This document shows, piece after piece, positions 1-27,521 of a DNA stretch of 32,000 nt. Under the pieces are notes generated by a model, which saw nothing but the letters and a program-made list of their open reading frames with translations, was not told the DNA's origin and made no database searches. Source of the DNA: Geobacter metallireducens GS-15. Its GTDB lineage: Bacteria; Desulfobacterota; Desulfuromonadia; Geobacterales; Geobacteraceae. Both the position numbers and the translations under genes were made by a program. The stretch is taken from positions 3,300,001-3,332,000 of the forward strand of contig NC_007517.1 in NCBI RefSeq assembly GCF_000012925.1, read 5' to 3'. Every line of letters begins with the position of its first letter. The stretch's first letter is position 1.

Positions 1-153
1 CAGCAGGACGACCCGCGTCACCTTTTTCAGGATATTGGAAAGTGTGTTGGGAAGGGAGTCGGTGACCGTGACCGAATACCCTTCCTTTATGAAGTGTTCC
101 GCCATCTGCTGGCGGGTGGCCGGATCCTTTTCGGCGATGAGCAGTTCTTCCAT
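1..153 (-). CDS. Receiver-like (REC fold) protein, 5' part only (gene runs off the window start); paralog of 14305..14697
   Basis: Absent from the ORF track because it is truncated. Minus-strand ATG at 153..151 with an AGGGGGA Shine-Dalgarno (SD) sequence about 7 nt upstream. Translates MEELLIAEKDPATRQQMAEHFIKEGYSVTVTDSLPNTLSNILKKVTRVVLL, which is 26/51 identical by hand alignment to the N-terminus of the 14305..14697 product. It sits in the same position, downstream of a small-protein paralog. Confidence 0.75.
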   Translation of the reverse strand, partial: MEELLIAEKDPATRQQMAEHFIKEGYSVTVTDSLPNTLSNILKKVTRVVLL

Positions 154-211
154 GACGGTTCCCCCTTTCCGCACAGGGATGCGGGATTGCGGCCAGCAGC
201 CTTTCTGCCGG

Positions 212-427
212 TCAGTTGCGGGATTCGGCATCCTTGCCAGAGAAGAGCCCCTTGAGCATCGAGCCGAACAGCGTCAGGCCGGGCAGCATTTGACCGACGA
301 TTATCAGCGCGCCGATGCCGATGAAGAGGATCAGAAAAAGGCCGCTTCCTTCGGACTCCGCTCCGCTGGCGGCGAATGCTGATGAGGCGGCAATCAGGGT
401 AATCATGGTGGCGAGCGTTGTTTTCAT
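212..427 (-). CDS. Small (71 aa) signal-peptide plus single-TM protein, copy 1 of a 3-member paralog family
   Basis: ORF with SD GGGAGGA 4 nt before the ATG; the SD-to-start region is nearly identical to copy 2. MKTTLATMITLIAASSAFA-ASGAESE, then a hydrophobic helix, then a conserved LPGLTLFGSMLKGLFS tail. Clear paralogs at 14034..14273 and 14747..14977. Confidence 0.8.
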   Translation of the reverse strand: MKTTLATMITLIAASSAFAASGAESEGSGLFLILFIGIGALIIVGQMLPGLTLFGSMLKGLFSGKDAESRN

Positions 428-483: not shown

Positions 484-499
484 AGCAGCCGCCATGCCA
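484..499 (-). promoter_or_regulatory. Sigma-54 (-24/-12) promoter candidate for the 427..1 module
   Basis: Minus strand reads TGGCAT-GGCGG-CTGCT (consensus TGGCAC-N5-TTGCA) with GG and GC at the correct 12-nt register. It gives a leader of about 45 nt to the ATG at 427, the same geometry as the promoter at 13964..13979. Confidence 0.65.
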
Positions 500-965: not shown

Positions 966-1886
966 GTGTCATTTCGCACGAATTTCATGAATGGCGTGAA
1001 ACTCTCCCTGATCCTCGCCGGCCTCGCGGCCGTCAGCTCCCCGGCATTTGCCCTTGAGCAGCCTGCGGACAAGGGGACTGGATACCTGGCGGTCGAAGCA
1101 CGCGAAACGGCCCCGGAAAGCCGGGAGTTGGTTCAAATCTTTTCCCCGGCCATCAATCATCGCGAGGCGAAGGTGACTGCGGGAAAGGATGGAACACGGC
1201 TCCTCACCCTCACCACCGACTCCATCCTCAACGGAAGGGCGGTCCGCAAGTTCAACCAGAAACTTATTGAGAAAGGGATCAATGTCTACGGCGCCGCCTA
1301 TTACGGTGACTTCTCTTGGGACAGGACCGTCATCGACGCGGCCATCACCATGACCCGCCCGGTTGCGGGGGTGCCTGACACCATCGAGATTTCCGAGGGA
1401 ATCGCCCGGGATCCGAAAACCAACCTCCCCCTCATGCCCTTGACCGTTTCCATCTATGATCTCTCCATTCCGCTGAAGGAGGACTTCGGCAAGGCATGGA
1501 AGCGGGTCGAGATCATTCCCGCGGTGGAGCCCGCGGCTCCCGAACTGAAGACCGGCCGCTATCCCGGCTCCAGGGTGTGGCTCGTGCGCCAGAACGACGG
1601 GGAACGTCGCCATGTGATCTATGCCGTGAAAGGGGATCTGCACGCCGTGGAGCAGTTCTTCGACGCGAAGCTCAAGGAGATCCACCGGACCGTCATCGTG
1701 GCCGGTGACGCCGACAGCGCCCCTTCGCCGGCCGAGGTGTTCGGCGTCAAGACATCGGCCCAGGTCATCGTCCTCTCCGGGTACAGCTACATCGACAAAA
1801 AACTTGTCAATTCCGACGTAACCCTGCGCCACGCCAACGATCCGAACCTGTTCCCCTACGTGGAAATCGAGGTGGCGGAGAACTGA
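966..1886 (+). CDS. Secreted hypothetical protein (306 aa)
   Basis: GTG start with AGGAG 8 nt upstream. N-terminal signal peptide (LILAGLAAVSSPAFA-LE). I recognise no family. The mirror ORF on the other strand is rejected. Confidence 0.7.
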   Translation: MSFRTNFMNGVKLSLILAGLAAVSSPAFALEQPADKGTGYLAVEARETAPESRELVQIFSPAINHREAKVTAGKDGTRLLTLTTDSILNGRAVRKFNQKLIEKGINVYGAAYYGDFSWDRTVIDAAITMTRPVAGVPDTIEISEGIARDPKTNLPLMPLTVSIYDLSIPLKEDFGKAWKRVEIIPAVEPAAPELKTGRYPGSRVWLVRQNDGERRHVIYAVKGDLHAVEQFFDAKLKEIHRTVIVAGDADSAPSPAEVFGVKTSAQVIVLSGYSYIDKKLVNSDVTLRHANDPNLFPYVEIEVAEN

Positions 1887-1907
1887 TCCGCCACCCATTC
1901 ATTCCCT

Positions 1908-10417: not shown

Positions 10418-12049
10418 ATGCCCTTGCGCCTGTCGCTCATTGCCAAACTCTCCCTCGCCATAAGCCTCATCCTCCTCGCCACCATGGGGCTCTTTGCCTA
10501 CATTAACGTAGAACAACTCGAAAAGCTCCTCTACGAGGAGGCGGTCATCGATGCCGACAAGCTGAGCGAGACCATCATCCGCACCACCCACTACCACATG
10601 CTCGAAAACAACCTGAAACGGGCCTACCAGATCATCGACGAGGTAGGGTCCCAGCGGGGAATCATTGACCGCATCAGGATGGTCAACAAATTTGGCCTCG
10701 TAACCCACTCCACGGACTCAAAGGAGAAAGGCCTCTATCTGGACAAGAAGGCCGAGGCGTGCAGCATGTGCCACTCGGGGCCATCTCCCCTTGTCCACGC
10801 TACCACCATGAATCGCAGCCGTCTCTTCACCAACAGGGAGGGGAAAGAGGTCCTGGGCCTCGCCAAGGCAATCTATAACGAGGAGCGTTGCTACACGGCC
10901 CCCTGTCATTTTCACCCCAAGGAGGCCAAGGTCCTCGGCGTCCTGGACGTTATCGTTTCCCTCGACCAGATGCACCAGAAGGTATACGCCTATCGCAACG
11001 AGATCATCGTTCTCACGGTCCTGCAGATCGGCCTTATCGCCCTCTGTCTCACCTTCCTCACCCAGCGCCTGGTCAACCGGCCGGTCCGGGCGCTGGTCAA
11101 CCATGCCCATTTGATAGGCGGCGGCGACCTCGACGCCACGGTGAGGGTCAAGAACCGCGACGAGCTCGGCGAACTGGCCGATGCCTTCAACGGCATGACA
11201 ATAAACCTGAAAAAGGCACGGGTAGAGTTGGAGGATTGGGGCAAAAACCTTGAAGACAAGGTGGAAGAGCGGACCCAGGAGATCAAGAAAATCCAGTCGC
11301 AGTTGGTCCACTCCGAGAAGCTCGCCTCCCTGGGAGAACTTGTGGCAGGGATTGCCCACGAGATCAACAACCCCCTGACCGGCATCCTCGTCTTCGCGTC
11401 GCTGCTTGCCAGCGATTCGAAGCTCGATCCGTCCCTGAAGGGGGACCTGGACCTGATCGTCAAGGAAACCCAGCGCTGCGCCCGAATCGTGAAGGGGCTG
11501 CTCGATTTCTCCAGGGAATCGATGCCCCAGAAAAAGCCCTCGTCCCTGAACGCCATCATGGACGCAACACTGACGCTGGTCTGCAACCAGTCGAGCTTCC
11601 ACGATATCAACGTCATCAAGGAGTACAACCCCGACATCCCCGAGATGAACCTCGACCCGAACCAGATCGAGCAGGTGTTTATCAACCTGCTCCTGAACGC
11701 CTGCCACGCCATCGGGGGTCCTGGGGAGATCAGGATCAGAACCGGCTTCGACCAGGAGCGGGAAGAGGCCTACGCCGCCATTACCGACAACGGCTGCGGG
11801 ATTCCCGAGGAACATTTATCCAAAATATTCGACCCCTTCTTTTCCACCAAGGAAAACAAGGGTACCGGCCTGGGACTTTCGGTTTCCTACGGAATTATCG
11901 AGGGCCACGGTGGGAGAATCGAGGTCCGGAGCACCATGGGAGCGGGGACCACCTTCACCTGCTGGCTGCCGCTCAACCATGACAGGGCAACGGCTACGGC
12001 CGAAGCGGCGGCGGCCAATCAGGCGGCTCCCTTGCCGGAATCCTCCTGA
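10418..12049 (+). CDS. Sensor histidine kinase with periplasmic haem-c sensor domain, HAMP, HisKA and HATPase
   Basis: 543 aa. TM1, then a periplasmic region with CSMCH (10760..10774) and CYTAPCH (10889..10909), then TM2 and HAMP (DELGELADAFNGM). H-box AHEINNPL, N-box LLLNACHA, G-boxes DNGCGI and GTGLGLS. Confidence 0.85.
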   Translation: MPLRLSLIAKLSLAISLILLATMGLFAYINVEQLEKLLYEEAVIDADKLSETIIRTTHYHMLENNLKRAYQIIDEVGSQRGIIDRIRMVNKFGLVTHSTDSKEKGLYLDKKAEACSMCHSGPSPLVHATTMNRSRLFTNREGKEVLGLAKAIYNEERCYTAPCHFHPKEAKVLGVLDVIVSLDQMHQKVYAYRNEIIVLTVLQIGLIALCLTFLTQRLVNRPVRALVNHAHLIGGGDLDATVRVKNRDELGELADAFNGMTINLKKARVELEDWGKNLEDKVEERTQEIKKIQSQLVHSEKLASLGELVAGIAHEINNPLTGILVFASLLASDSKLDPSLKGDLDLIVKETQRCARIVKGLLDFSRESMPQKKPSSLNAIMDATLTLVCNQSSFHDINVIKEYNPDIPEMNLDPNQIEQVFINLLLNACHAIGGPGEIRIRTGFDQEREEAYAAITDNGCGIPEEHLSKIFDPFFSTKENKGTGLGLSVSYGIIEGHGGRIEVRSTMGAGTTFTCWLPLNHDRATATAEAAAANQAAPLPESS

Positions 12050-12140: not shown

Positions 12141-13553
12141 TCAATTGTTCATCTGACTTCGCACTGAGATCCGCAGTTTTTTAAGCAACGCCTGGAAGTT
12201 GGGCCGAAGCATACCCGTTTCCTCAGCAGCCCGGGTAATGTTCCAGTTGTTGCGTTTGAGGGCCTGGAGGACAAAGGCCTTTTCGATGGGTTCCACGGCT
12301 CGCTCCCGAATCTGCCGCTTGGTCTCCTTCAACTCCTCGACGTTCTGGGGGACATAGGCCGCAACTCCGGTCCCCTCGCTTCCGGAGAGACGCAGTTCCA
12401 GATCTTCCTTCTGGATCAAATCCTCCTCGGCAAGGACCACGGCCCGCTCGATGATGTTCTCCAACTCCCGTACGTTGCCGGGAAACGTGTAATCCTCCAG
12501 GAGTGCCATGGCGTCAGGCGCCAGTCCCCGGATTTCCCGCCCCATCTCCTCGGAAAACTTCTTGAGGAAGAAGGCGATGAGGAGCGGCAGATCCCCCTTG
12601 CGCTCACGCAGGGGAGGAAGGTCTATGGGAATAATGTTCAGGCGGAAGAAGAGGTCTTCCCGGAAGGTCCCCTGGGGGACCAGGGTCCGGAGGTTCTTGT
12701 TGGTGGCAGCCACGAGGCGGATGTCGATGGGGACCGGCTGGGTGCCGCCGATGGGGGTGATCTCCCGCTCCTGAAGAACCCGCAGGAGCTTCGCCTGGGT
12801 GGTGAGGCTTATGTTGGATATCTCGTCCAAGAAGAGGGTGCCGCCGTCAGCCACCTTGAAGAGTCCGGTTTTCGTCTGGATCGCACCGGTGAACGATCCT
12901 TTCACGTGGCCGAACAATTCGCTTTCCAGGAGGTTCTCGGCCAGGGACGTACAGTCGACGGCAACAAAGGGATTTTCGCGGCGGTTGCTGTGGTTGTGGA
13001 TGGCCCGGGCAACCAGCTCCTTCCCGGTACCGCTCTCGCCGGTGATGAGAACGGTGCTGTCGGTGGGGGCAACCTGGATGATGCGCCGGTAGACCTTCTG
13101 GATTTCCTTGCTCTCCCCCACGAAGAGATCGAAGCCGTGGTGCTCTCCCAGCTCCTTCTTCAGAAAGATGTTCTCAATCAGGACTGCACGCTGATCGAGA
13201 GCTTTCCTCACTTTCTCCGTAATCTGCTCGGGGGTAAAGGGTTTGGCGATGTAGTCGAAGGCACCGTTCTTCATGGCCTCCACAGCGGTGTCGACGGTTG
13301 AGAAGCCGGTAATGATGATAACCGGAACTTCCGGCTGCAGAACCTTGATTGCCTTGAGAACCTCCATGCCGCTCATGCCGGGCATCTTCAGGTCGGTAAT
13401 CACAAGACTGAAGTTTTCCTCCTGCATCCGTTCGAGGGCAATCTGCCCGCTGGCCGAGGTCTCCACATGGAATCCCTCCTTCTCCAGGATGCGCCGCAGT
13501 CCCTCGCGAATAACCGCTTCATCGTCCACCACAAGAACATCAATGTTTTCCAT
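12141..13553 (-). CDS. bccR: Sigma-54-dependent response regulator (NtrC family: REC, AAA+, Fis-type HTH)
   Basis: REC with a canonical DD pocket, phospho-Asp (VITDLKMPG), T and K. Walker A GESGTGKE, GSFTGA loop (GAFTGA variant) and a C-terminal HTH. ATG at 13553 has a GGAAGGTGG SD; the ORF track begins at an upstream GTG (13559). The symbol rests on recalled synteny with G. sulfurreducens GSU0598 and is tentative. Confidence 0.8.
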   Translation of the reverse strand: MENIDVLVVDDEAVIREGLRRILEKEGFHVETSASGQIALERMQEENFSLVITDLKMPGMSGMEVLKAIKVLQPEVPVIIITGFSTVDTAVEAMKNGAFDYIAKPFTPEQITEKVRKALDQRAVLIENIFLKKELGEHHGFDLFVGESKEIQKVYRRIIQVAPTDSTVLITGESGTGKELVARAIHNHSNRRENPFVAVDCTSLAENLLESELFGHVKGSFTGAIQTKTGLFKVADGGTLFLDEISNISLTTQAKLLRVLQEREITPIGGTQPVPIDIRLVAATNKNLRTLVPQGTFREDLFFRLNIIPIDLPPLRERKGDLPLLIAFFLKKFSEEMGREIRGLAPDAMALLEDYTFPGNVRELENIIERAVVLAEEDLIQKEDLELRLSGSEGTGVAAYVPQNVEELKETKRQIRERAVEPIEKAFVLQALKRNNWNITRAAEETGMLRPNFQALLKKLRISVRSQMNN

Positions 13554-13758
13554 CGCCACCTTCCCTTTTCATCCCCCATACGGGTGGGTTACTCATTCAT
13601 AACAGACCGGCGACAAAGCAACAGACGATTAGTAGTTTCTAAATTACATCAACCACCCTGACAAGTCAAACACCTTATGGAGTCACACCTATCGACCGAA
13701 AGTCGACTCGCTTGAATTTATTACATGATTTCAATATGATACAACCGAAAACCCGACT

Positions 13759-13963: not shown

Positions 13964-13979
13964 TGGCATAACGGATGCA
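13964..13979 (+). promoter_or_regulatory. Sigma-54 (-24/-12) promoter of the small-protein/pseudo-REC/cytochrome operon
   Basis: TGGCAT-AACGG-ATGCA against consensus TGGCAC-N5-TTGCA. About 43-nt leader to the ATG at 14034. Lies divergent from the NtrC-type activator gene. Confidence 0.7.
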
Positions 13980-14033
13980 CTTGTAATGGTCAAGACGGCA
14001 CGCATCGTTATTCACATACCCAGGGAGAATGCC

Positions 14034-14273
14034 ATGAAAACCTCAGCGAGAGCACTCTTAGCACTTCTTGCAGCATCCGGTACAGCCCTTGCGGCAAGCG
14101 GTGCCGAATCCGAGGCCAACGGCTTCCTGGTGACGCTCTTCCTCGCGTTTGGTGCCCTGGTCATAGCTTTCCAACTGGCCCCCGGCCTGATCCTGTTCGG
14201 CTCCATGATGAAAGGGCTTTTCTCCAGGCCGGCCGACGAAACCGTCATGGGCGACTCCGGCAACGAACGGTAG
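14034..14273 (+). CDS. Small (79 aa) signal-peptide plus single-TM protein, copy 2
   Basis: Internal ATG of ORF 13986..14273, chosen because AGGGAGA sits 5 nt upstream and it aligns with the starts of the paralogs. MKTSARALLALLAASGTALA-ASGAESE, then a helix, then APGLILFGSMMKGLFS. Confidence 0.8.
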   Translation: MKTSARALLALLAASGTALAASGAESEANGFLVTLFLAFGALVIAFQLAPGLILFGSMMKGLFSRPADETVMGDSGNER

Positions 14274-14304: not shown

Positions 14305-14697
14305 ATGTTAGGACTTCTCATCGCAGACAACGATACTGTTGCTCGCAAGGAACTGGCGGATCTTTTCATCGAAGCAGGCTACAACGTTACCGTGACCAAC
14401 TCAGCGGCCAACGCCCTCTATGGGATACTCAAAAAAACCGCGCAGGTGGTCCTTATCGGGAGCGAATTCGACAATTTCAAGGCCGGCGATCTGATACCAC
14501 TCCTCAAGCAATGCGATCGGAACGTTACGATTATCCTCGTATCCGATGAGGACTCCCTCCCGGTCATGCGTAAGCTTCGCAAGGATGGGATATTCTACCA
14601 CGCACTGAGACCGGTCAAACCGGAGGACAAAGAAGAAATCCGCCAGGCCGTGCGATGCGCCTTCGAAAACCTTCTCAGCGCACGGCCGGCAAGATAA
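14305..14697 (+). CDS. Stand-alone receiver-fold protein lacking the phospho-acceptor Asp (pseudo-receiver)
   Basis: 130 aa with a GGAGAGAGGA SD. Hand alignment to CheY: the acidic pocket is partly kept (D8, D10), the phospho-Asp position is Gly52 (VVLIGSEF), the Thr position is Ser80 and the Lys position is Arg102 (ALRP). Confidence 0.75.
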   Translation: MLGLLIADNDTVARKELADLFIEAGYNVTVTNSAANALYGILKKTAQVVLIGSEFDNFKAGDLIPLLKQCDRNVTIILVSDEDSLPVMRKLRKDGIFYHALRPVKPEDKEEIRQAVRCAFENLLSARPAR

Positions 14698-14746: not shown

Positions 14747-14977
14747 ATGAAACGCTCATTGGCACAAACAATCGCAGTTTGGCTCGGCATGGCGGTTCCG
14801 GCGCTGGCAGCATCAGGAGCGCGGGAAGACAACAGCGGCATCTTCGTCTGGATATTCCTCGGATTTTGCGCCCTTATCGTCGTCGCCCAACTTCTTCCGG
14901 CACTGCTCATGATGCTCGGCTTCGCCAAGGGGCTCAAGAAGGAACAGCCCATGGCCAAAGAGTCTGCGCACCACTAA
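14747..14977 (+). CDS. Small (76 aa) signal-peptide plus single-TM protein, copy 3 (more diverged)
   Basis: AGGAGG SD 6 nt upstream. MKRSLAQTIAVWLGMAVPALA-ASGARED, then a helix (IFVWIFLGFCALIVVAQLLPALLMMLGF), then AKGLKK. Confidence 0.8.
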   Translation: MKRSLAQTIAVWLGMAVPALAASGAREDNSGIFVWIFLGFCALIVVAQLLPALLMMLGFAKGLKKEQPMAKESAHH

Positions 14978-15041: not shown

Positions 15042-16094
15042 ATGACAACCCTACGATCAGCAACTCTCGTGCTATCGATTCTCCTGGTCTTCCCGATGGT
15101 GGCCCTTGCCGCCGCAGCTACCGAAGACGGATGCATCGGTTGCCACGGCGACAAGAATATCAGCGGCAAGAGCGGGTCCCATCTCTTCATCGACCCGGGC
15201 CAGTACAAGAAAACCAGCCATTCGATCATCGGCTGCACCTCTTGCCATGAATCGGTGACATCCAATCACCCGAATGACGGCATCAGGCCGTCGCGGGCCA
15301 CCTGCAAGGAATGCCACAGCCCGGTCCACCAGGAGTATGCCGCGAGTCTCCACGCCAATAACGCGGCGTGTGCCGACTGCCACAATCCCCATGCGGTGAA
15401 GCCGCCGGCGATGACGTCGGCCCGGGACATGAACGCCATGTGCGCCAAATGCCACGAAACCGCCAAGATGGTCAATGTTCACGCCAAATGGCTTCCGCAG
15501 GCAGACCTCCACATCGACGCCCTCCCCTGCATCACCTGCCACACCGGTTCGCAAAATTACGTCATAACCATGTACATCGAGAAACGGCTGGGGACAAAGG
15601 AGCACAGCGACTTCAAGGTGGCCAGCTTTGACGAGCTCACCCAGCTCGTGCCGGGCGACAAGGACGTGAAAGCCCTTATCGACACCAATGGCGACAACTT
15701 CATCTCCCTGGCTGAGCTTCGGTCCTTCAACCGCAATTCGAAGCATGACGACATGAGACTCTGGGGAATGATGACCCCCGAAAAGGTAACCCACAGCTAC
15801 CAGATTCTGGACAACCGCTGGGACTGCACCTTCTGCCATGCCTCCGGCCCCAGGGCCATGCAGACGAGCTTCGTCGCCTTCCCGGAAAAGGGAGGCACCT
15901 ACACCCGCGTGGCCGTCGAGAAGGGAGCCGTCCTCGACGTCCTCTACGGGACTCCCGACTTCTACATGATGGGCTCCACCCGCAGCACGGCGCTCTCCAT
16001 CGTCGGCGGACTCATCGTCCTCGGCGGCATGGGGTTTGCCGGAGTGCACGGGACACTAAGATTCCTCACCAGAAAAAATAGAAAGGAGCACTAA
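15042..16094 (+). CDS. cbcA: Heptahaem c-type cytochrome with C-terminal membrane anchor (CbcA-like)
   Basis: ATG at 15042 (AAGGAGG SD) rather than the track start at 14982. Signal peptide; seven CxxCH motifs (CIGCH, CTSCH, CKECH, CADCH, CAKCH, CITCH, CTFCH); C-terminal [21 protein letters not shown]. The stop lies 2 nt before the cytochrome b start. The symbol rests on recalled synteny. Confidence 0.8.
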
Positions 16095-16096
16095 TC

Positions 16097-16771
16097 ATGA
16101 GCGCCCATAACGAGCAAGCATTGCATACAGAGCATGCGGAACACGCTGAGTATATCTACCTTACCCCAATGCCGGTCAGAATCTGGCACTGGATCAACGC
16201 CCTCGGCATCGTTACCCTCTGTGTCACCGGGCTCCAGATCAGGTTCCCCGAATACGTGAACATCTTCGGGACCTACAAAGCCGCCATCAGGCTCCACAAC
16301 ACCGCCGGCATCACCGTTTCCATCTTCTACGCAATCTGGTTCGCGTACTACCTGATCGTGAAGGGGAATCTCTTCAAGCTCTACGTCCCCAACACCTATG
16401 ACATAAAAATGGGAATTTTCCGGCAGGTGCTTTACTACTTCTACTACTTCTTCAAGGGGGGTCCGAGTCCGCACCACGCCACTCCTGACGACAAATTCAA
16501 CCCGATGCAGAAGGTGGCTTACATGGGGCTGATGCTCGTACTGCTCCCCCTGGTCATCCTGACCGGCATTCTCATCCTCAACGTTGCCCCCCTCAGAGAA
16601 ATGATCATGCTGCTGGGAGGCCTCAAAATTCTCGTCAGCGCCCATTTCCTGATCGCCTGCTGCTTCTGCGCCTTCCTCTTCGTCCATATCTACCTGGCAA
16701 CCATGGGGCACACGATGCTTGCCCACTTCAAGCCCATGTGGGACGGCTGGGAAGAGGTCAAGCACCACTGA
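16097..16771 (+). CDS. cbcB: Membrane dihaem b-type cytochrome (HydC/PhsC/FdnI-like; CbcB-like)
   Basis: 224 aa with about 4 TM helices and conserved His in helices (IWHW, RLHN, SAHF, FVHIY), as in the Ni/Fe-hydrogenase-type cytochrome b family. Appears translationally coupled to the upstream cytochrome c. Confidence 0.8.
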   Translation: MSAHNEQALHTEHAEHAEYIYLTPMPVRIWHWINALGIVTLCVTGLQIRFPEYVNIFGTYKAAIRLHNTAGITVSIFYAIWFAYYLIVKGNLFKLYVPNTYDIKMGIFRQVLYYFYYFFKGGPSPHHATPDDKFNPMQKVAYMGLMLVLLPLVILTGILILNVAPLREMIMLLGGLKILVSAHFLIACCFCAFLFVHIYLATMGHTMLAHFKPMWDGWEEVKHH

Positions 16772-16867: not shown

Positions 16868-16896
16868 TTGACTAATCTTGCTTCATTACCTATAAT
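16868..16896 (+). promoter_or_regulatory. Near-consensus sigma-70 promoter for the dodecahaem cytochrome
   Basis: TTGACT - 17 nt - TATAAT with an AT-rich upstream (UP-like) stretch. About 45-nt leader to the ATG at 16947, which has a GAGGAGG SD. Confidence 0.7.
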
Positions 16897-16946: not shown

Positions 16947-17936
16947 ATGAGATTCCGCTTCACCCTTCCCCTCGTGGCCTGTACACTCGCCGTTGCCGGT
17001 CTTGCCTTCGGCATCAGCATCAAAGACGTGGTCTTCACCACGAAGGACGCTGGCAAGATCGTCTTCAGCCATAAGGTCCATATCGGCAAGAAGGGTATCG
17101 AAAACAACTGCAAGGCCTGTCACCCTGCCATCTTCGACATGAAGAAGAAGGTGACCTACACCATGGCCGACATGGAAAAGGGAAAATCATGCGGCGCCTG
17201 CCATACCGGGAAAGATGGCGTATTCCCCCTCAAGGATTGCGCCCGATGCCACGCGGTGAAGGAAATCACCTACCAGGTGAAGTCCGCGGGTCCCACCCCC
17301 TTCAGTCACAAGAAACACCTGGCCAAGTACTCAGACTGCGGCGCCTGCCATCCCAAGCTCTTCAAGGCCGGCCACAACAAGCCGGTCACCATGGCCGAAA
17401 TGGAGAAAGGGAAGTCCTGCGGCGCCTGTCATAACGGCAAGTCGGCCTTCAGCGTGAATGAATGTGCACGCTGCCACCTGGTGAAGGAAGTGGGGCTCAC
17501 CTCAAAGGAAACCGGCAAGATCATTTTCAGCCACAAACTCCATGCAGCAAAGAGGAAGTGCGGAGAATGCCATAACAAGCTCTATGAAGCGGGCCGCAAC
17601 AAGCCGGTCGGCATGGCTGCCATGGAAAAGGGGAAATCCTGCGGGGCCTGCCACAACGGCAAGGGACTCTTCGACGTGAAGCAGTGTGCCAAGTGCCACC
17701 CCGTCAAAGCTGTAAACTTCAAAGTATCGGGAGCTGGACCGGTCAAATTCAGCCACGATGTCCACCTTGCGATGTACAGTTGCAACGCCTGCCACACCAA
17801 GATCTTCAAAGCGGGCCGCAGCGCCAAGGTAGTGACCATGTTCGAAATGGAGAAGGGGAAATCGTGCGGCGCCTGCCACGACGGCAAGAAAGCCTTCAGT
17901 GTACGCGAGGACTGCGTGAAATGCCACGACATGTAG
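16947..17936 (+). CDS. Periplasmic dodecahaem cytochrome c made of four c7-type trihaem domains (GSU1996/GSU0592 family)
   Basis: 329 aa with a signal peptide and twelve CxxCH motifs in four repeats. Each repeat has the pattern ..C.ACHP.(I/L)F... M(E)KGKSCGACH.GK ....C.(R/K)CH; the MEKGKSCGACH unit recurs 4 times at spacings of about 225 to 232 nt. Confidence 0.9.
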   Translation: MRFRFTLPLVACTLAVAGLAFGISIKDVVFTTKDAGKIVFSHKVHIGKKGIENNCKACHPAIFDMKKKVTYTMADMEKGKSCGACHTGKDGVFPLKDCARCHAVKEITYQVKSAGPTPFSHKKHLAKYSDCGACHPKLFKAGHNKPVTMAEMEKGKSCGACHNGKSAFSVNECARCHLVKEVGLTSKETGKIIFSHKLHAAKRKCGECHNKLYEAGRNKPVGMAAMEKGKSCGACHNGKGLFDVKQCAKCHPVKAVNFKVSGAGPVKFSHDVHLAMYSCNACHTKIFKAGRSAKVVTMFEMEKGKSCGACHDGKKAFSVREDCVKCHDM

Positions 17937-18057: not shown

Positions 18058-18906
18058 ATGCTGAAAAGCTTCGCCGCCAAGGCAACCGTGCCGCCCGCCA
18101 TCGCCGTAACAGGATTCGTCGTAGTCTGTTGCATCCTCCTCTACTCGGTCATCAAGACCGACATGCTCAATGATGCCATAGAGCACGAAACCAATCTGGC
18201 CGGAACCATCGTCAAATCGGCCCGCTACGCCATGCTGAAGGACGACCGGGAGACATTACGCAACATCATTGACAACATAGGCCAGCAGAAGGGGGTTGAG
18301 CACACCCGCATCTTCAACAAGAAAGGGGTCATCATGTTCTCGGCCCACACCGAGGACGTGAACAAACTCGTCGACAAAAAGGCCGCTGGATGCATCGCCT
18401 GCCATACCGGCCCGGTTCCCCTCACCAGCATGGGAAGGATGGAACAGGCCCGACGCTACATCAACGAACAAGGCCACAGCGTCATCGCCATCACGGTCCC
18501 CATTTACAACGAACCCGATTGCTTCAACGCCGCCTGCCACGTCCACAGCCCCAACCTGAAACTTCTCGGCACTCTGGACATTGGCCTCTCGGAGGAACCG
18601 CTCCAAAAAACGCTCGGTACCCTGCGCGGCAGAATGATCGTCTTCTGCGTCATGGTTCTCATTCTCACGGTTGGGGGAGTCTCCGCGCTCCTGCTCCGCA
18701 ATGTCCTTCTTCCCATCAAGGAATTGGCCAACTATGTTGTTGCCATAAAAAGGGGCGACGCGAACAGAAAAGCTCCGGCCTATCGTGATGAAATCGGCGA
18801 ACTGGCCCGTTCGTTCGAGGAGATGGCAACCAGGCTGACGGCGACTCAGAATGAGTCGAAACAACAGCGGTCAGCCGAAGGCGACGGCGCCGACAGCCGT
18901 TCCTGA
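18058..18906 (+). CDS. Membrane haem-c sensor plus HAMP protein with no output domain
   Basis: 282 aa: TM1, a periplasmic domain homologous to the kinase sensor at 10418 (CIACH at 18391..18405, CFNAACH at 18520..18540), TM2, HAMP (DEIGELARSFEEMATRL), then about 20 residues and a stop. Confidence 0.8.
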   Translation: MLKSFAAKATVPPAIAVTGFVVVCCILLYSVIKTDMLNDAIEHETNLAGTIVKSARYAMLKDDRETLRNIIDNIGQQKGVEHTRIFNKKGVIMFSAHTEDVNKLVDKKAAGCIACHTGPVPLTSMGRMEQARRYINEQGHSVIAITVPIYNEPDCFNAACHVHSPNLKLLGTLDIGLSEEPLQKTLGTLRGRMIVFCVMVLILTVGGVSALLLRNVLLPIKELANYVVAIKRGDANRKAPAYRDEIGELARSFEEMATRLTATQNESKQQRSAEGDGADSRS

Positions 18907-19474
18907 TCCGTCGCTCATGGCCGACATCCGTGACCCATCCTCCATGAAGCGCTTCCAGCCCCCCCCTCCCAAGCCCGACGCAACGGGCACCCCCCCGGAC
19001 AGGGACGCGGTGCGACAGGAAACCGTTCAACGGATCAAACGACTCCGAAGCAAGTCGAACCGCGGCCTCTGGGCCATGGCTCTCTTCATCGCCGTCAGTA
19101 TCGTTGCGTTAGGGGACTTCAGCATCCTCCCCCCGCTCCCTCCATCGATCCGCGCAACCCTCGGAAAGCCACCCTCCGCCATCATGATCAGCGGAGCCCT
19201 CGTTCTCTATACTTTCTCGGCGATCATCCTCATCCTTTCGCGCATGATGGGAGGAAAGGAAGAGTACAGCGGTTTTGCCCATGTGGGATACCTCGCCGCC
19301 TTCTACGGCTTCTACCATTTCGCCAAGGCCCTCAATGAGAATTTTTGGGCGGTCTTTGTTGCAGGCGTCACCATCCTGGGGCTCGAAAGCTACCACATCT
19401 GGAACTTCTGCAATGAAGCGATCCGCCGCGAGCAGGAGGTTCTCGACTCCATCGAGCGGTTAAGAAAATCGTAG
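18851..19474 (+). CDS. Hypothetical integral membrane protein (about 4 TM) with Pro-rich N-terminus; start uncertain
   Basis: The 207-aa ORF overlaps the upstream gene by 56 nt. Alternative ATGs at 18917 and 18944 remove the overlap; none has a clear SD. The hydrophobic helices (LWAMALFIAVSIVAL, AIMISGALVLYTFSAIILIL, VGYLAAFYGFYHF, FWAVFVAGVTILGL) support that it is coding. Confidence 0.6.
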   Translation: MSRNNSGQPKATAPTAVPDPSLMADIRDPSSMKRFQPPPPKPDATGTPPDRDAVRQETVQRIKRLRSKSNRGLWAMALFIAVSIVALGDFSILPPLPPSIRATLGKPPSAIMISGALVLYTFSAIILILSRMMGGKEEYSGFAHVGYLAAFYGFYHFAKALNENFWAVFVAGVTILGLESYHIWNFCNEAIRREQEVLDSIERLRKS

Positions 19475-19583: not shown

Positions 19584-19595
19584 CACATAGAACCA

Positions 19596-19690
19596 ACTCG
19601 CTAGGGGAGTTTCGACTGAGAGTCCGACGCGCTGCTACGGACAACCCTTTGAACCTGATCCGGATAATGCCGGCGTAGGGAAGCGTTCCA
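19596..19690 (+). promoter_or_regulatory. TPP (THI-box) riboswitch
   Basis: CGCU-AGGGGAG...CUGAGAG...ACCCUUUGAACCUGAUCCGGAUAAUGCCGGCGUAGGGA-AGCG carries the conserved THI-element blocks, and P1 closes (CGCU/AGCG). Sits directly upstream of thiS. Confidence 0.9.
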
Positions 19691-19712
19691 CCATGGTCTA
19701 TTCCACGACCAC

Positions 19713-19736
19713 GGGCCGCTTCTGCGGCCTTTTTTG
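19713..19736 (+). terminator. Riboswitch expression-platform terminator
   Basis: GGGCCGC-TTCT-GCGGCC followed by TTTTTTG, between the aptamer and the thiS start. Confidence 0.7.
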
Positions 19737-19791
19737 TTTACGCGACCAGATGCCGGTTTCGACGAACCGGCACCCATACTCGGAGAACACA

Positions 19792-19989
19792 ATGGAAATC
19801 ATCGTCAACGGCGAAGCACGGGCTGCCACCCCCATGTCGATGCTTGAGCTTCTTCGCTCCCTCGACATCGACCCCCGCCGGGTGGCGGTAGAACTGAACC
19901 ACGACATTCTTCCCAAGGGTGAATACGAATCCACCATCCTCAACGACGGAGACCGGATCGAGATCGTCCACTTTGTGGGCGGGGGATAA
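19792..19989 (+). CDS. thiS: Sulfur-carrier protein ThiS
   Basis: 65 aa from the internal ATG (GGAGAA SD), MEIIVNGE..., ending in the diagnostic ..HFVGGG. The longer track ORF (19693) spans the riboswitch terminator and is rejected. Confidence 0.9.
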   Translation: MEIIVNGEARAATPMSMLELLRSLDIDPRRVAVELNHDILPKGEYESTILNDGDRIEIVHFVGGG

Positions 19990-20004: not shown

Positions 20005-20779
20005 ATGTCCACTACGAACGACAAGCTGATCATCGCCGGCCGGGAATTCAGCTCCCGCCTCATGGTCGGAACCGGCAAATACGCCAGTAACGAGCAGATG
20101 GTGGCGGCCCTGGAGGCCTCGGGAGCCGAGATCATCACCGTGGCGGTGCGGCGAGTCAACATCACCGACCGCTCCAAGGAGTCGCTCCTGGACTTCATCG
20201 ACACCAGGAAATACACGCTTCTTCCCAATACCGCCGGCTGCTACACGGCCGACGACGCGGTCCGCACCTGCCGACTCGCCCGGGAAGCGGGGATGAGCGA
20301 CATGGTTAAACTGGAGGTTCTCGGCAACGAGACGACCCTCTACCCCGACAACGAGGAGCTCCTCAAGGCGGCCAAGATCCTCGTCAAGGACGGGTTCACA
20401 GTCCTTCCCTATACGAGCGACGACCCCATCATCTGCAAGAAGCTGGAGGACATCGGCTGTGCCGCAGTCATGCCGCTTGGCGCACCCATCGGGAGCGGCC
20501 TCGGCATCCGCAACCCTTACACCATCCGGATCATCATGGAGACGGTAAAGGTGCCGGTCATCGTTGACGCCGGCGTGGGAACGGCCTCTGACGCGGCCAT
20601 TGCCATGGAACTGGGGGTTGACGGCGTCCTCATGAACACCGGCATCGCCGGCGCCCAGAATCCCATCGCCATGGCCGAGGCCATGAACCTGGCGGTGCGG
20701 GCCGGGCGGCTCGCCTACCGGGCGGGGCGCATCCCGAAAAAGCTCTACGCCACCGCATCGAGCCCCATCGAGGGGATGA

Positions 20780-20787
<8 letters not shown>
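20005..20787 (+). CDS. thiG: Thiazole synthase ThiG
   Basis: 260 aa with typical ThiG sequence ([39 protein letters not shown]). Confidence 0.9.
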
Positions 20788-25294: not shown

Positions 25295-27385
25295 TCAGTC
25301 GTCGGCCCGGTAGCCGATCCTGACCGCTCCCCAGTGTTTCCCGCCGACTGTTATGGGCGTTGACAGGTCGTTCATGACCTCCCCCGTGTCCCGCAGATAG
25401 GTCTGGAGCAGAAAGCTCTGGGTATGGGTGGCGCAACGGATGCCGGTCCGGTCGTTGAAGATCCGCTTGGTGCGGTTGTGGTCCTTGTCCACGGCGACGT
25501 CGCCGGTCAGGGGGCGGGAATAGCGCAGGTTGTGGGAGGGGCAGTACCCCTCGCGATCGACACAGATGGCATAGTACACCCCACTGTCCCGGCCCAGGAT
25601 CTCCTCCTGAACCGGCGAGACGAGTTCGTCAAAGAACCGGTCGAAGGGGGTACGGTACTTCTGGGGAGTGGTGTTCGGAATCGGCGTGTAATCGGTGCTG
25701 AAGAGGGCATCGATGGTGATCTTCCGGTCCTCCAGGGCCTTCTCTATGACCGCCGTCGCCCGGTCCCGCAGCTCCGCGGCATACCCCTTGACGGCATCAT
25801 GGTAGCACCCCACGCTGAACCGGCCCACGGTCCCGTAGATTTTCTCGGCTGTTTCCGACAACTCGCGGAAGATGCGGGCCGTCTCCTCCATCTGGCCGTT
25901 CACCGCCCCTGCCGTGGCCGACACCTGGCCGATCTTCTCCGTGATCTCGACGGTCGTGGCACTCTGCTCCTCAGTGGCCGTGGCAATCTGGCTGATCATG
26001 TCCGTTGAATCGGTCGCCAACCGCAGGATCCCCTCCAGTTGCTGGCGGGCATGCCCCGCCTTCTCGACCCCTTCCTCAACCCTCGTTTTCCCCTCGCCAA
26101 TGGATGTCACCACCGTCCCGATCTCTTCCTGGATGCTCCGGACAATGGCGGCGATCTGTCTTGTGGACGTGGCGGTGCGATTTGACAGGGTCTTCACTTC
26201 GTTGGCCACCACCGCAAAGCCCCGCCCCGCATCGCCGGCCCGGGCAGCCTCGATGGCCGCGTTGAGGGCCAGGAGATTGGTCTGGTCGGCGATATCCTCG
26301 ATAATTCCCACGATCTCGCCGATCTGCCCCGACGAAGTCTCCAGCTTCCCCATGGCTCCCAGGGTGCCGAGGACGCTGGTCCGGATCTGGTCGATGCTCA
26401 GGGAGGTCTCCTCCACGGTCTCCATCCCCACTTTTGCAGCCTGATCCACGTTAATGGAGAGCTGCGCCGCCCGCTGGGTGGTGGCTGCCACATCGTTCAG
26501 GGTAGCCGACATCTCCTCCGACGCCACGGCCACCGAGGTGGAAAGGTCCTTCTGTTCCGCCGTAGAGGCGACGAGCCCTTCGGTCCCCTTGACGGTGCGG
26601 CAGGCCGATATGGCGATGTGCCCCGCCTGGCTGTAGAGGGATGTCACAATCTCCCGCAGCTTGGCGATCAGCATGTTGACCCCCTCGGCAAGCTCTCCGA
26701 GCTCGTCGCCGGTCCGGACTGGCATCTGTGAGGTCAGATCCCCCTCGCCGTGGGCGATGACCTGGATCCTGTCGGACAGCTCACGGATGTTCCGCACGAT
26801 GGTCTGACGGAAGAAGAGGTACAAGGTACCAAGCATGATCAGGAAAAAGACAAAGCCGGTTGCAGCCAGGGCTATGGTAAGGTTCCGCGCGCTGACATAC
26901 CCATCCTGAAGCGAGGTGGTGAGAAGAATCGCACCGGTGTACCGGGCTCCCTTCTCGTGGCAGGTGGTGCAGCGCTCCTCGTTCACCAGGGGGACGGCAA
27001 AGCTCAGGACATGCTTCCCGTCATCCAGGGTATGGCGCAGTTCCCGGGCACGGCCTGCCGCAATGGCTTCCGCAACCACCGGGTCAGCAGCCGCGCCCTT
27101 GTCCCCCCACGGCTTTGCGGCGGGACCGAACACCTTGAGGTCGAGCACCTGCCCCTTCCCTTTCACCCGTGCGATATATCGGTTTATCACCGCCATGTCG
27201 CCCGACATCATGTTTTCAGCGATTTCCTGGGAGATGAGGGTTGAGAGGCCGCGGGTATTGGCAGCCTGAAGTTTCATCAGGGCGGTGTATTCAAGCCAGA
27301 TGGCGGTTACACCAAGGATGGCGAATCCCACGCAAAGGGTTGCTCCAATAATCCCCAGCACCTTGAACTCGAGCCTGTTACGCAT
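25295..27385 (-). CDS. Methyl-accepting chemotaxis protein with periplasmic haem-c sensor and an extra C-terminal domain
   Basis: Start moved to the internal ATG at 27385 (GGAGAGAGG SD; [11 protein letters not shown]..), giving 696 aa. Periplasmic CTTCH (26957..26971), HAMP ([13 protein letters not shown]) and MA tip [38 protein letters not shown] further domain of about 170 aa follows the MA domain (25298..25810). Confidence 0.9.
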
Positions 27386-27521
27386 TATGACACCTCTCTC
27401 CGATAACATGACCGCTAGTATCTTATCGGTACCGAGAGGCAATCCTTTAATCGATTTCAGAAACGTGTTTGATTATTAATTAGTTTAGACAGGATTACGA
27501 AGTGTTACGGGCAGGCTCAAC

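Follow-up and report, generated by a model that had tools for sequence, protein, structure and literature searches.

A stand-alone receiver without its phospho-acceptor aspartate shares a cassette with two micro-membrane proteins in the cbcBA operon of Geobacter metallireducens

In a stretch of 32,000 nucleotides of the Geobacter metallireducens GS-15 genome (GCF_000012925.1, contig NC_007517.1, positions 3,300,001 to 3,332,000; hereafter the window), the gene at 14305..14697 encodes a stand-alone receiver domain without the aspartate that is phosphorylated in response regulators. By the published definition (PMC12632262), the protein is a pseudo-receiver (PsR) of the aspartate-less class, and this state is a trait of its family. 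The gene lies between those of two small paralogous membrane proteins, named here sA and sB, to which related receivers are fused in other genomes. We suggest, with a probability of about 0.45, that the protein is a phosphorylation-independent adaptor carrying the membrane or respiratory state into the circuit formed by the neighbouring sigma-54 activator BccR and a sensor kinase. The cassette consists of:

14034..14273, plus strand: sA, a 79-aa micro-membrane protein with a signal-like or transmembrane (TM) segment ending in A-x-A, a TM helix with Q-x-x-P and a KGLF tail
14305..14697, plus strand: Asp-less stand-alone receiver (PsR) of 130 aa, recognised by its receiver fold and residue alignments, ortholog of G. 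sulfurreducens GSU0596
14747..14977, plus strand: sB, a 76-aa micro-membrane protein paralogous to sA (GFCALIVV-Q-x-x-P-A ... KGL)

The receiver open reading frame (ORF) has an AGGA Shine-Dalgarno sequence about 7 nt upstream. Residues 5-116 of its product match positions 2-110 of the 111 in the Pfam profile Response_reg (PF00072), with 35.4 bits against a curated cutoff of 30.2 (E = 1.3e-8); a paralog at the window's edge, REC2, scores 32.8 bits. The AlphaFold2 (AF2) model, for which 51 homologs were given as input, has a mean pLDDT of 81 and the canonical (beta-alpha)5 order, with five strands (residues 3-7, 27-31, 48-52, 75-80 and 96-101) and five helices (11-23, 34-42, 60-70, 85-93 and 106-125). 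Foldseek returned 512 PDB matches at E <= 1e-3; the top 50 listed all hold receiver domains, the best being Spo0F (1nat, TM-score 0.81/0.88, root-mean-square deviation 1.5 A). The gene thus encodes a receiver-fold protein, as the original prediction, made from the sequence alone, had claimed. The nearest homologs, from G. hydrogenophilus and G. grbiciae, are 98% identical.

Receivers of this kind were defined by Maule et al. 2015 (PMC4395418) and in a 2025 J Bacteriol perspective (PMC12632262). A PsR is a computationally recognised receiver missing at least one of the five catalytic residues, and an aspartate-less receiver (ALR) is one without the D site (PMC12632262). In our protein, the residue facing the phospho-acceptor (CheY D57, C-terminal end of beta3) is Gly52 (VVLIG) in four independent alignments. 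It was aligned to Asp54 of Spo0F (LVLLD54) by phmmer, and it occupied the phospho-Asp position both in a MAFFT L-INS-i alignment with CheY, Spo0F and the BccR receiver of the window and in a BLASTP comparison with the latter. In the AF2 model, residue 52 is the end of strand beta3. From the acidic pocket (CheY D12 and D13), D8 is kept while the second Mg ligand is replaced by Asn9, so the two acids are not both present. The Thr/Ser position (CheY T87) is a regular Ser80, and the Lys-Pro pair (CheY K109-P110) is changed to Arg102 followed by an invariant Pro103. The glycine, the arginine and the partial pocket had all been read in this way by the original prediction, and for the three positions that it wanted checked, D57, T87 and K109, the alignments give Gly52, Ser80 and Arg102. 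With the D, second-acid and K positions all substituted, the protein does not belong to the canonical phospho-receivers.

E54 and D56, the residues named beforehand as those that could overturn this assignment if one of them fell at the acceptor position with an intact pocket, correspond to D+2 and D+4 of the beta3-alpha3 loop, and on this register they were rejected as cryptic acceptors. D56, nearly invariant, stands where a D+4 Pro is usual, and Ala60 is found at D+8, a position with Gly in true receivers according to the pseudo-receiver review. An alternative register with Lys105-Pro106 as the Lys-Pro pair, given only by phmmer against Spo0F, was discarded: Pro103 never varies, 105 of 120 close homologs have Lys and the other 15 Arg at position 102, and MAFFT and BLASTP concur on Arg102, as does the family alignment. 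A recent duplication of the BccR receiver domain was also discarded, since the two share only 20% identity in BLASTP.

The word-indexed search retrieved 1191 homologs at E <= 1e-3, and 339 relatives are present in GTDB species genomes. In an exhaustive HMMER search over 1.84 billion cluster representatives, only 88 matches reached E <= 1e-10, which indicates a small and distinct family. Among the 120 closest homologs, position 52 is Gly in 74, Ser in 46 and acidic in none. Within 59 divergent representatives it is G44, S6, D6, E1, A1 and N1, and no true family member, including those with Asp52, has the complete catalytic quintet. The sole apparent exception (P0239), a multi-receiver protein of 552 aa, owes its score to the sum of several generic domains. 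In the same 59 sequences, the second Mg-ligand position is Lys or Arg in 27, the Ser80 position is Ser in 40 and Ala in 11, and position 102 is K24, R18, P5, T3, Q3 or others (E, M, L, N, D), with Pro103 kept.

Conservation was computed over 51 representatives, each from a separate 50%-identity cluster. At 3.67 bits per position, beta5 ranks first in conservation among the structural elements. Polar residues that hardly vary are Arg89 and Arg92 in alpha4, Tyr98 and His99 in beta5, Pro103, Asp108, Glu111 and Cys118 in the following loop and alpha5, and Lys68 and Cys70 at the end of alpha3; Arg113 is conserved together with Arg89 and Arg92 on the alpha4/alpha5 face. Gly52 itself is retained in 40 of the 51. 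Cys70 is found in 39 and Cys118 in 45 of these divergent sequences, both being essentially invariant in close homologs, and some members of the fused clade described below have Ser or Ala for Cys118, or Gln for His99. From the alignments, Cys118 would fall at the position equivalent to CheY K122. The loss of the aspartate is therefore a family trait and not a lesion, with purifying selection shifted to the alpha4-beta5-alpha5 face, the surface that receivers, and most pseudo-receivers, usually employ for output and dimerisation. The expectation that the protein is Asp-less and acts through protein contacts instead of canonical phosphotransfer holds for the whole family.

Two side observations concern the members of the family. 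One match labelled Draconibacterium is a 1-kb contig of a metagenome-assembled genome, and its label is probably a binning error. In Trichlorobacter thiogenes, the receiver of the first cassette (L045 5067..5453, plus strand) has additional cysteines, with Cys-Cys at 70-71 and a C-terminal CYC, which hints that thiol or metal chemistry may be relevant in some family members.

These results bear on two alternatives. The protein could be a conventional phospho-accepting single-domain response regulator, working as a sink or shuttle through E54, D56 or D10, since D8 and Ser80 are retained, D56 is nearly invariant, and the gene adjoins a kinase/response-regulator pair. We regard this as very improbable, as four alignments and the model put Gly52 at the acceptor site, D56 belongs to the loop at D+4, the second Mg ligand is Asn9 here and often basic elsewhere, the Lys position is variable, and the full quintet is absent from all members. 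The lost catalytic residues could also be those of a decaying, functionless response-regulator remnant. This explanation is effectively refuted by conservation: the homologs are numerous both in the general search and in GTDB genomes, conservation is strong and patterned, Gly52 included, synteny is preserved, a paralog is maintained at 55% identity, and GSU0596 is co-regulated with its neighbours in published transcriptomes.

The two small proteins are paralogous to each other and to both small proteins of a second cassette. They share a plan in which an MK start is followed by a hydrophobic segment ending in A-x-A, about 10 polar residues, a TM helix (F-x-G-F-x-A-L-x-x-V-x-Q-x-x-P-A) and a cytoplasmic K-G-L-F tail. 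In addition to the conserved intramembrane Gln-x-x-Pro, sB carries a Cys. No family was found for sA or sB in Pfam or NCBIfam. A longer version of the sA ORF starts at 13986, which is probably not the true start.

For the neighbourhood survey, 80 related genome loci and the paralogous locus were used, yielding 103 family receiver genes; the cargo and neighbour counts thus cover the best 80 of 339 GTDB loci, all of them close relatives of the window receiver. Detection of the small proteins by regular expressions missed many, and iterated hidden Markov models (HMMs) were used instead. An sA-like gene is directly upstream in 92 of the 103 and an sB-like gene directly downstream in 69, while 21 have sA only and 2 are fusions of the receiver with sB. 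Fusions were surveyed in the 105 cluster representatives whose alignment to the receiver domain spans at least 100 residues. In 22 of them the receiver is fused to a TM module, always in gene order (20 receiver-sB, 1 sA-receiver and 1 sA-receiver-sB), and all 22 score at least 78 bits against the family HMM. The N-terminal sA fusion is present in P0170 and P0186 and the C-terminal sB fusion in 21 of the 105. The receiver-sB fusions are numerous, have 219-267 aa and occur in the cultured Citrifermentans bemidjiense Bem, C. bremense R1, Geoanaerobacter pelophilus and Geomonas limicola.

The near-obligate adjacency and the natural fusions, a classical Rosetta-stone type of evidence, suggest that sA, receiver and sB work together physically as a unit, and a complex of the three would follow. 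In the fused forms, the first hydrophobic segment has to be a TM helix, and the predicted hairpin with its Lys/Arg-rich tail would leave the receiver in the cytoplasm. The fusion topology is consistent with a receiver lying in the cytoplasm between the tail of sA and the start of sB, with the C-terminal tails of both small proteins predicted to be cytoplasmic as well. Hence the receiver is probably a membrane-tethered domain, held at the cytoplasmic face by sA and sB. Of the docking partners originally proposed, the small membrane proteins are strongly supported by these sequence comparisons, while cytochrome b is disfavoured, since CbcA/CbcB are replaced in most genomes and the surrounding frame is kept.

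A subgroup of receiver-sB fusions (P0126, P0156, P0181 and P0207; 314-331 aa) has a linker of about 120 aa, of low complexity and rich in Gly, Arg, Ser, Asp and His, which could be a disordered linker or a read-through of gene calling. In T. thiogenes (L045 14712..15270, minus strand), an sA-like and an sB-like gene adjoin with no receiver between them, and 3' of this pair we have found a gene for a 133-aa Cys-rich protein (CxxC...CxxC), followed by a TatA-like gene.

The cassette belongs to the following locus:

10418..12049, plus strand: sensor histidine kinase, presumed partner of BccR, with a periplasmic domain containing CXXCH, HAMP, HisKA and HATPase
12141..13559, minus strand: BccR-type sigma-54 enhancer-binding protein (EBP; REC-AAA+-HTH), divergent, with an intact phospho-pocket (DD, D56, T, K-P)
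13964..13979, plus strand: sigma-54 -24/-12 element TGGCATAACGGATGCA driving sA-PsR-sB-cbcA-cbcB (pattern match)
15043..16094, plus strand: CbcA, multiheme c-type cytochrome anchored by a C-terminal TM segment (cargo; ribosome-binding site and ATG at 15043)
16097..16771, plus strand: CbcB, di-heme b-type cytochrome (Ni_hydr_CYTB; cargo)
16947..17936, plus strand: OmcQ/CbcC-like multiheme cytochrome with c7 repeats (conserved downstream frame)
18058..18906, plus strand: CbcD-like protein with a periplasmic heme-motif sensor, TM and HAMP, without output domain
18851..19474, plus strand: CbcE-like polytopic membrane protein with a weak Yip1 match (conserved downstream frame)

In G. sulfurreducens, the cbcBA (Cbc5) operon GSU0597-GSU0593 comprises the small hypothetical proteins GSU0597 and GSU3489, the receiver GSU0596, CbcA and CbcB, a sigma-54 promoter was reported 5' of GSU0597, and BccR is needed for cbcBA induction as the redox potential falls (10.1101/2021.04.15.440034). 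Gene order, sigma-54 promoter and divergent BccR activator all match, so the window locus is the cbcBA operon and the receiver is the G. metallireducens-type ortholog of GSU0596, two identities that the original prediction had missed. That gene was listed merely as an 'RpoN-dependent response regulator', and the paper has no mention of its Asp-less nature, the cassette, the fusions or cargo swapping (10.1101/2021.04.15.440034). The literature on GSU0596, GSU0597, GSU3489 and Gmet_2932 returned entries in transcriptome tables only. The name 'Cbc5 pentasubunit complex' was considered as proof that the receiver is a subunit and rejected, because CbcABCDE corresponds to Gmet_2928-2932, the downstream genes and not the trio.

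The CbcD-like protein accompanies the cassette in almost all loci of sufficient extent. It shares with the kinase a periplasmic domain with CXXCH and a CxxxxCH-like motif and weak matches to Mcp40H-20_sensor; judging by this likeness, CbcD resembles a kinase-less copy of the kinase sensor and could heterodimerise with the kinase. The same sensor domain is present with 148.9 bits in a nearby methyl-accepting chemotaxis protein (25295..27442, minus strand). As listed, the CbcE-like ORF overlaps the end of the CbcD-like ORF by 56 nt (18851..18906), and its true start is probably a later Met. A strong sigma-70-like promoter (16868..16896, plus strand; TTGACT-17-TATAAT, 11/12) is found just 5' of the OmcQ/CbcC-like gene, in agreement with published data by which the sigma-54 operon ends after cbcB, and with a separate transcription of cbcCDE.

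At the other end of the window there is a second copy of the cassette:

1..153, minus strand: REC2, paralogous pseudo-receiver, N-terminal 51 codons in the window (130 aa in full)
212..427, minus strand: sA2, micro-membrane protein of 71 aa whose gene opens the second cassette
484..499, minus strand: sigma-54 -24/-12 element TGGCATGGCGGCTGCT 5' of the second cassette, before sA2 (pattern match)
L001 10001..13363: continuation of sA2-REC2-sB2 beyond the window, prolonging the minus strand of window positions 1..427

The ORF at 1..153, which had been noted as a paralog, is indeed the N-terminus of a 130-aa protein identical to the window receiver at 71 of 130 positions (55%), with Gly52, Ser80, Lys102-Pro103, Cys70 and Cys118. 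After sB2 come a soluble SdhB-like 2Fe-2S/4Fe-4S protein (224 aa) and a FAD_binding_2 flavoprotein of 531 aa. Both lack TM segments, signal peptides and other export signals, and sA2 and sB2 are the only membrane proteins of this operon.

The pattern TGGCAY-N6-TGCW has exactly two matches in the 32-kb window against 0.19 expected, one before each cassette; the promoter formerly proposed at 13964 is one of them. Among related receiver genes, 48 of 54 have a sigma-54-type element upstream, mostly at about 200-420 nt, and duplicated cassettes, mirror-image or in tandem, typically bring their own EBP each. Around close orthologs (63-98% identity), the frame is always (kinase)-BccR ortholog-sA-PsR-sB-[cargo]-OmcQ-HAMP-Yip. 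As cargo, about 17 loci carry CbcA/CbcB and about 55 an oxidoreductase made of cytochrome c, Tat-FeS (NrfC-like) and NrfD-like proteins. In C. bemidjiense, CbcA/CbcB-like genes follow a fused receiver-sB cassette with a different EBP and kinase, and one Trichlorobacter cassette has no recognisable respiratory gene behind it. It is thus the sigma-54/EBP/sensor frame that the receiver accompanies, whatever the enzyme, and the constancy of this frame while the enzyme cargo is swapped argues against a CbcBA-specific subunit.

A broader structural role has to be considered. The three proteins might serve quinone-linked oxidoreductases in general, as a membrane anchor, an adaptor or a biogenesis factor, without regulatory output. 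The cassette opens the operon and is transcribed together with the enzyme genes, the receiver is tethered to the membrane by fusion, Gln-x-x-Pro is conserved in the TM helix, and in the second cassette sA2 and sB2 accompany a SdhB-like/flavoprotein cargo that has no anchor of its own. We consider this explanation rather unlikely, given that the same close ortholog serves unrelated cargos (cytochrome b/multiheme c, NrfCD-type and SdhAB-like), that CbcB and NrfD already anchor their own complexes, that the Trichlorobacter cassette mentioned above is devoid of recognisable respiratory cargo, and that the combination of receiver fold and conserved alpha4-beta5-alpha5 face typically belongs to signalling.

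In the adaptor reading that we prefer, the phosphorylation-incompetent receiver would be the cytoplasmic part of a small membrane unit with sA and sB, and the three-gene cassette would be the first thing transcribed from the sigma-54 promoters switched on by BccR-type activators. Once tethered, the receiver would most likely bind the adjacent two-component/sigma-54 circuit through its conserved alpha4-beta5-alpha5 face, the candidate partners being the HisKA domain of the kinase, the receiver domain of BccR and CbcD, the heme-HAMP sensor without output. In this way, the membrane or respiratory state would be fed back onto the expression of BccR-dependent operons, with the receiver as a feedback or input adaptor and no phospho-relay. 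The pseudo-receivers of ShkA and CikA bind and inhibit HisKA domains, according to the pseudo-receiver review. A modulation of the NtrC-type activator or of the kinase, as previously suggested for the window protein, is plausible because of this precedent, the linkage of the cassettes to sigma-54 promoters and EBPs, and the conserved alpha4-beta5-alpha5 face. Which of the partners is bound, and whether the effect is positive or negative, is a matter of speculation.

Several observations weigh against the adaptor. At the alpha1 specificity positions, the MAFFT alignment shows V-A-E-D-L in the pseudo-receiver and V-I-G-R-I in BccR, which lends no obvious support to a simple competition for one and the same docking site on the kinase. 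No EBP or kinase is found next to the second cassette of the window. Pairs of sA and sB without a receiver exist, which indicates that the membrane unit serves a purpose by itself, not necessarily a regulatory one, and the co-transcription of the cassette with structural genes of high expression would likewise agree with a stoichiometric structural role. Finally, the only fusion of all three, sA-receiver-sB, is a single sequence from a metagenomic contig of 4 kb and calls for caution.

A more elaborate version of the adaptor, doubtful at present, takes the whole cassette for a membrane-embedded signal-input device of a hitherto unrecognised type. The micro-membrane proteins, with their intramembrane Gln-x-x-Pro and the Cys of sB, would read the menaquinone pool or the membrane and relay the signal via the phosphorylation-dead receiver to BccR and sigma-54, possibly together with CbcD, timing the low-potential quinol oxidoreductases.

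Sensing might instead reside in the pseudo-receiver itself, which would respond to the cytoplasmic thiol redox state or the menaquinone pool through Cys70 and Cys118 (disulfide or metal) or by quinone binding, changing its oligomeric state or its binding to partners. Both cysteines are conserved, the beta3-alpha3 loop is remodelled (Asp at D+4, Ala at D+8) where KaiA binds quinone, the cbcBA operon is induced as the redox potential falls, and there are precedents in the Cys-based redox pseudo-receivers RitR and HP1021 and in the quinone-binding KaiA and CikA. On the other hand, the cysteines are not placed as in RitR and HP1021, some fused-clade members are without Cys118 or have Gln for His99, and the kinase and CbcD already hold heme-type redox sensor domains. 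We find a sensor of this type unlikely, somewhat more so than a structural role. Less probable by far is the binding of a small molecule such as cyclic di-GMP (c-di-GMP), by which the receiver would pass a second-messenger signal to the kinase. ShkA does so with a pseudo-receiver that binds c-di-GMP on alpha4-beta5-alpha5, and Arg89, Arg92 and Arg113 are conserved on the alpha4/alpha5 face of our family; nevertheless, no nucleotide-binding motif is recognisable, and neither a cyclase nor a phosphodiesterase is conserved in the cassette neighbourhood.

As in other ALR/PsR domains, the window protein is a (beta-alpha)5 member of PF00072 in which the phospho-Asp and two more of the five residues are gone, the beta3-alpha3 loop is remodelled and alpha4-beta5-alpha5 is conserved. 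Most characterised ones, however, sit in larger proteins (DNA-binding regulators, kinases and KaiA), while our receiver is stand-alone and its family is joined genetically, and in many genomes covalently, to two-helix micro-membrane modules. Among stand-alone receivers, CheY, Spo0F and DivK are comparable, Spo0F being the closest structural match, but they are phosphorylated on a conserved Asp, which the window family cannot be at the canonical site.

In our working model, the receiver resembles those of ShkA and CikA in acting on a histidine-kinase module without phosphotransfer, CikA and KaiA being coupled to the redox state of quinone. The inhibition by ShkA and CikA is relieved by c-di-GMP or affected by quinone, and their PsR lies within the kinase polypeptide, whereas that of the window is separate and probably membrane-tethered; we found no specific sequence relationship to them. 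The KaiA N-domain and the CikA PsR bind oxidised quinone directly; for the window protein, the pointers to such binding are contextual, namely a quinol-oxidoreductase operon and a remodelled beta3-alpha3 loop. RitR and HP1021/CemR are likewise Asp-less receivers with conserved cysteine(s) in a redox-related regulon. Their Cys is in the linker after alpha5 or at DD+19, in contrast to Cys70 at the end of alpha3 and Cys118 in alpha5, and they have a DNA-binding output domain that the window receiver does not, so it is not one of them.

The Psp system comprises the pspABC sigma-54 operon and its EBP PspF, with PspB and PspC controlling the PspF-binding PspA. Our locus follows the same logic, a sigma-54 operon with a cytoplasmic protein and two small membrane proteins beside its EBP, by which the energetic state of the membrane could be coupled back to the activator. 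The likeness ends there: no homology and no matches to Psp families were found, a receiver fold takes the place of the PspA coiled coil, and the locus is not a Psp system.

Two further features of the window lie apart from the cassettes' function. A thiamine pyrophosphate (TPP) riboswitch (RF00059, 68.9 bits; 19593..19698, plus strand) is directly 5' of a thiS-like ORF (19693..19989) and thiG (20005..20787). Between the promoter of the second cassette and a Peptidase_M90 gene, the ORF at 966..1886 (plus strand) encodes a 306-aa predicted secreted protein with a signal peptide and no Pfam match. A 309-aa antisense ORF (969..1898, minus strand) overlaps it almost fully, and the public gene calls retain the plus-strand one.

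The gene itself is not new: its ortholog, named but uncharacterised, belongs to an operon that has been studied, and pseudo-receivers are common. Three points appear to be new: that the whole family is Asp-less; that sA, PsR and sB form a cassette that is naturally fused in some genomes, a stand-alone and membrane-tethered architecture absent from the discussion of the 2025 review; and that an exchangeable quinol-oxidoreductase cargo sits in a constant regulatory frame. To the pseudo-receivers, whose mechanisms that review calls 'a mystery' (PMC12632262), this adds the stand-alone membrane-anchored architecture and a new family of micro-membrane partners.

For Geobacter, the finding addresses the question of how the cell chooses among the inner-membrane quinol oxidoreductases ImcH, CbcL and CbcBA as the redox potential falls. 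The first three genes of the BccR-dependent operon, so far annotated as 'hypothetical, response regulator, hypothetical', are a conserved and often fused cassette, which makes it a genetically tractable candidate for feedback or signal input in the low-potential respiratory switch. If the cassette were to work as an input device, it would be a missing piece of redox-potential sensing in Geobacter.

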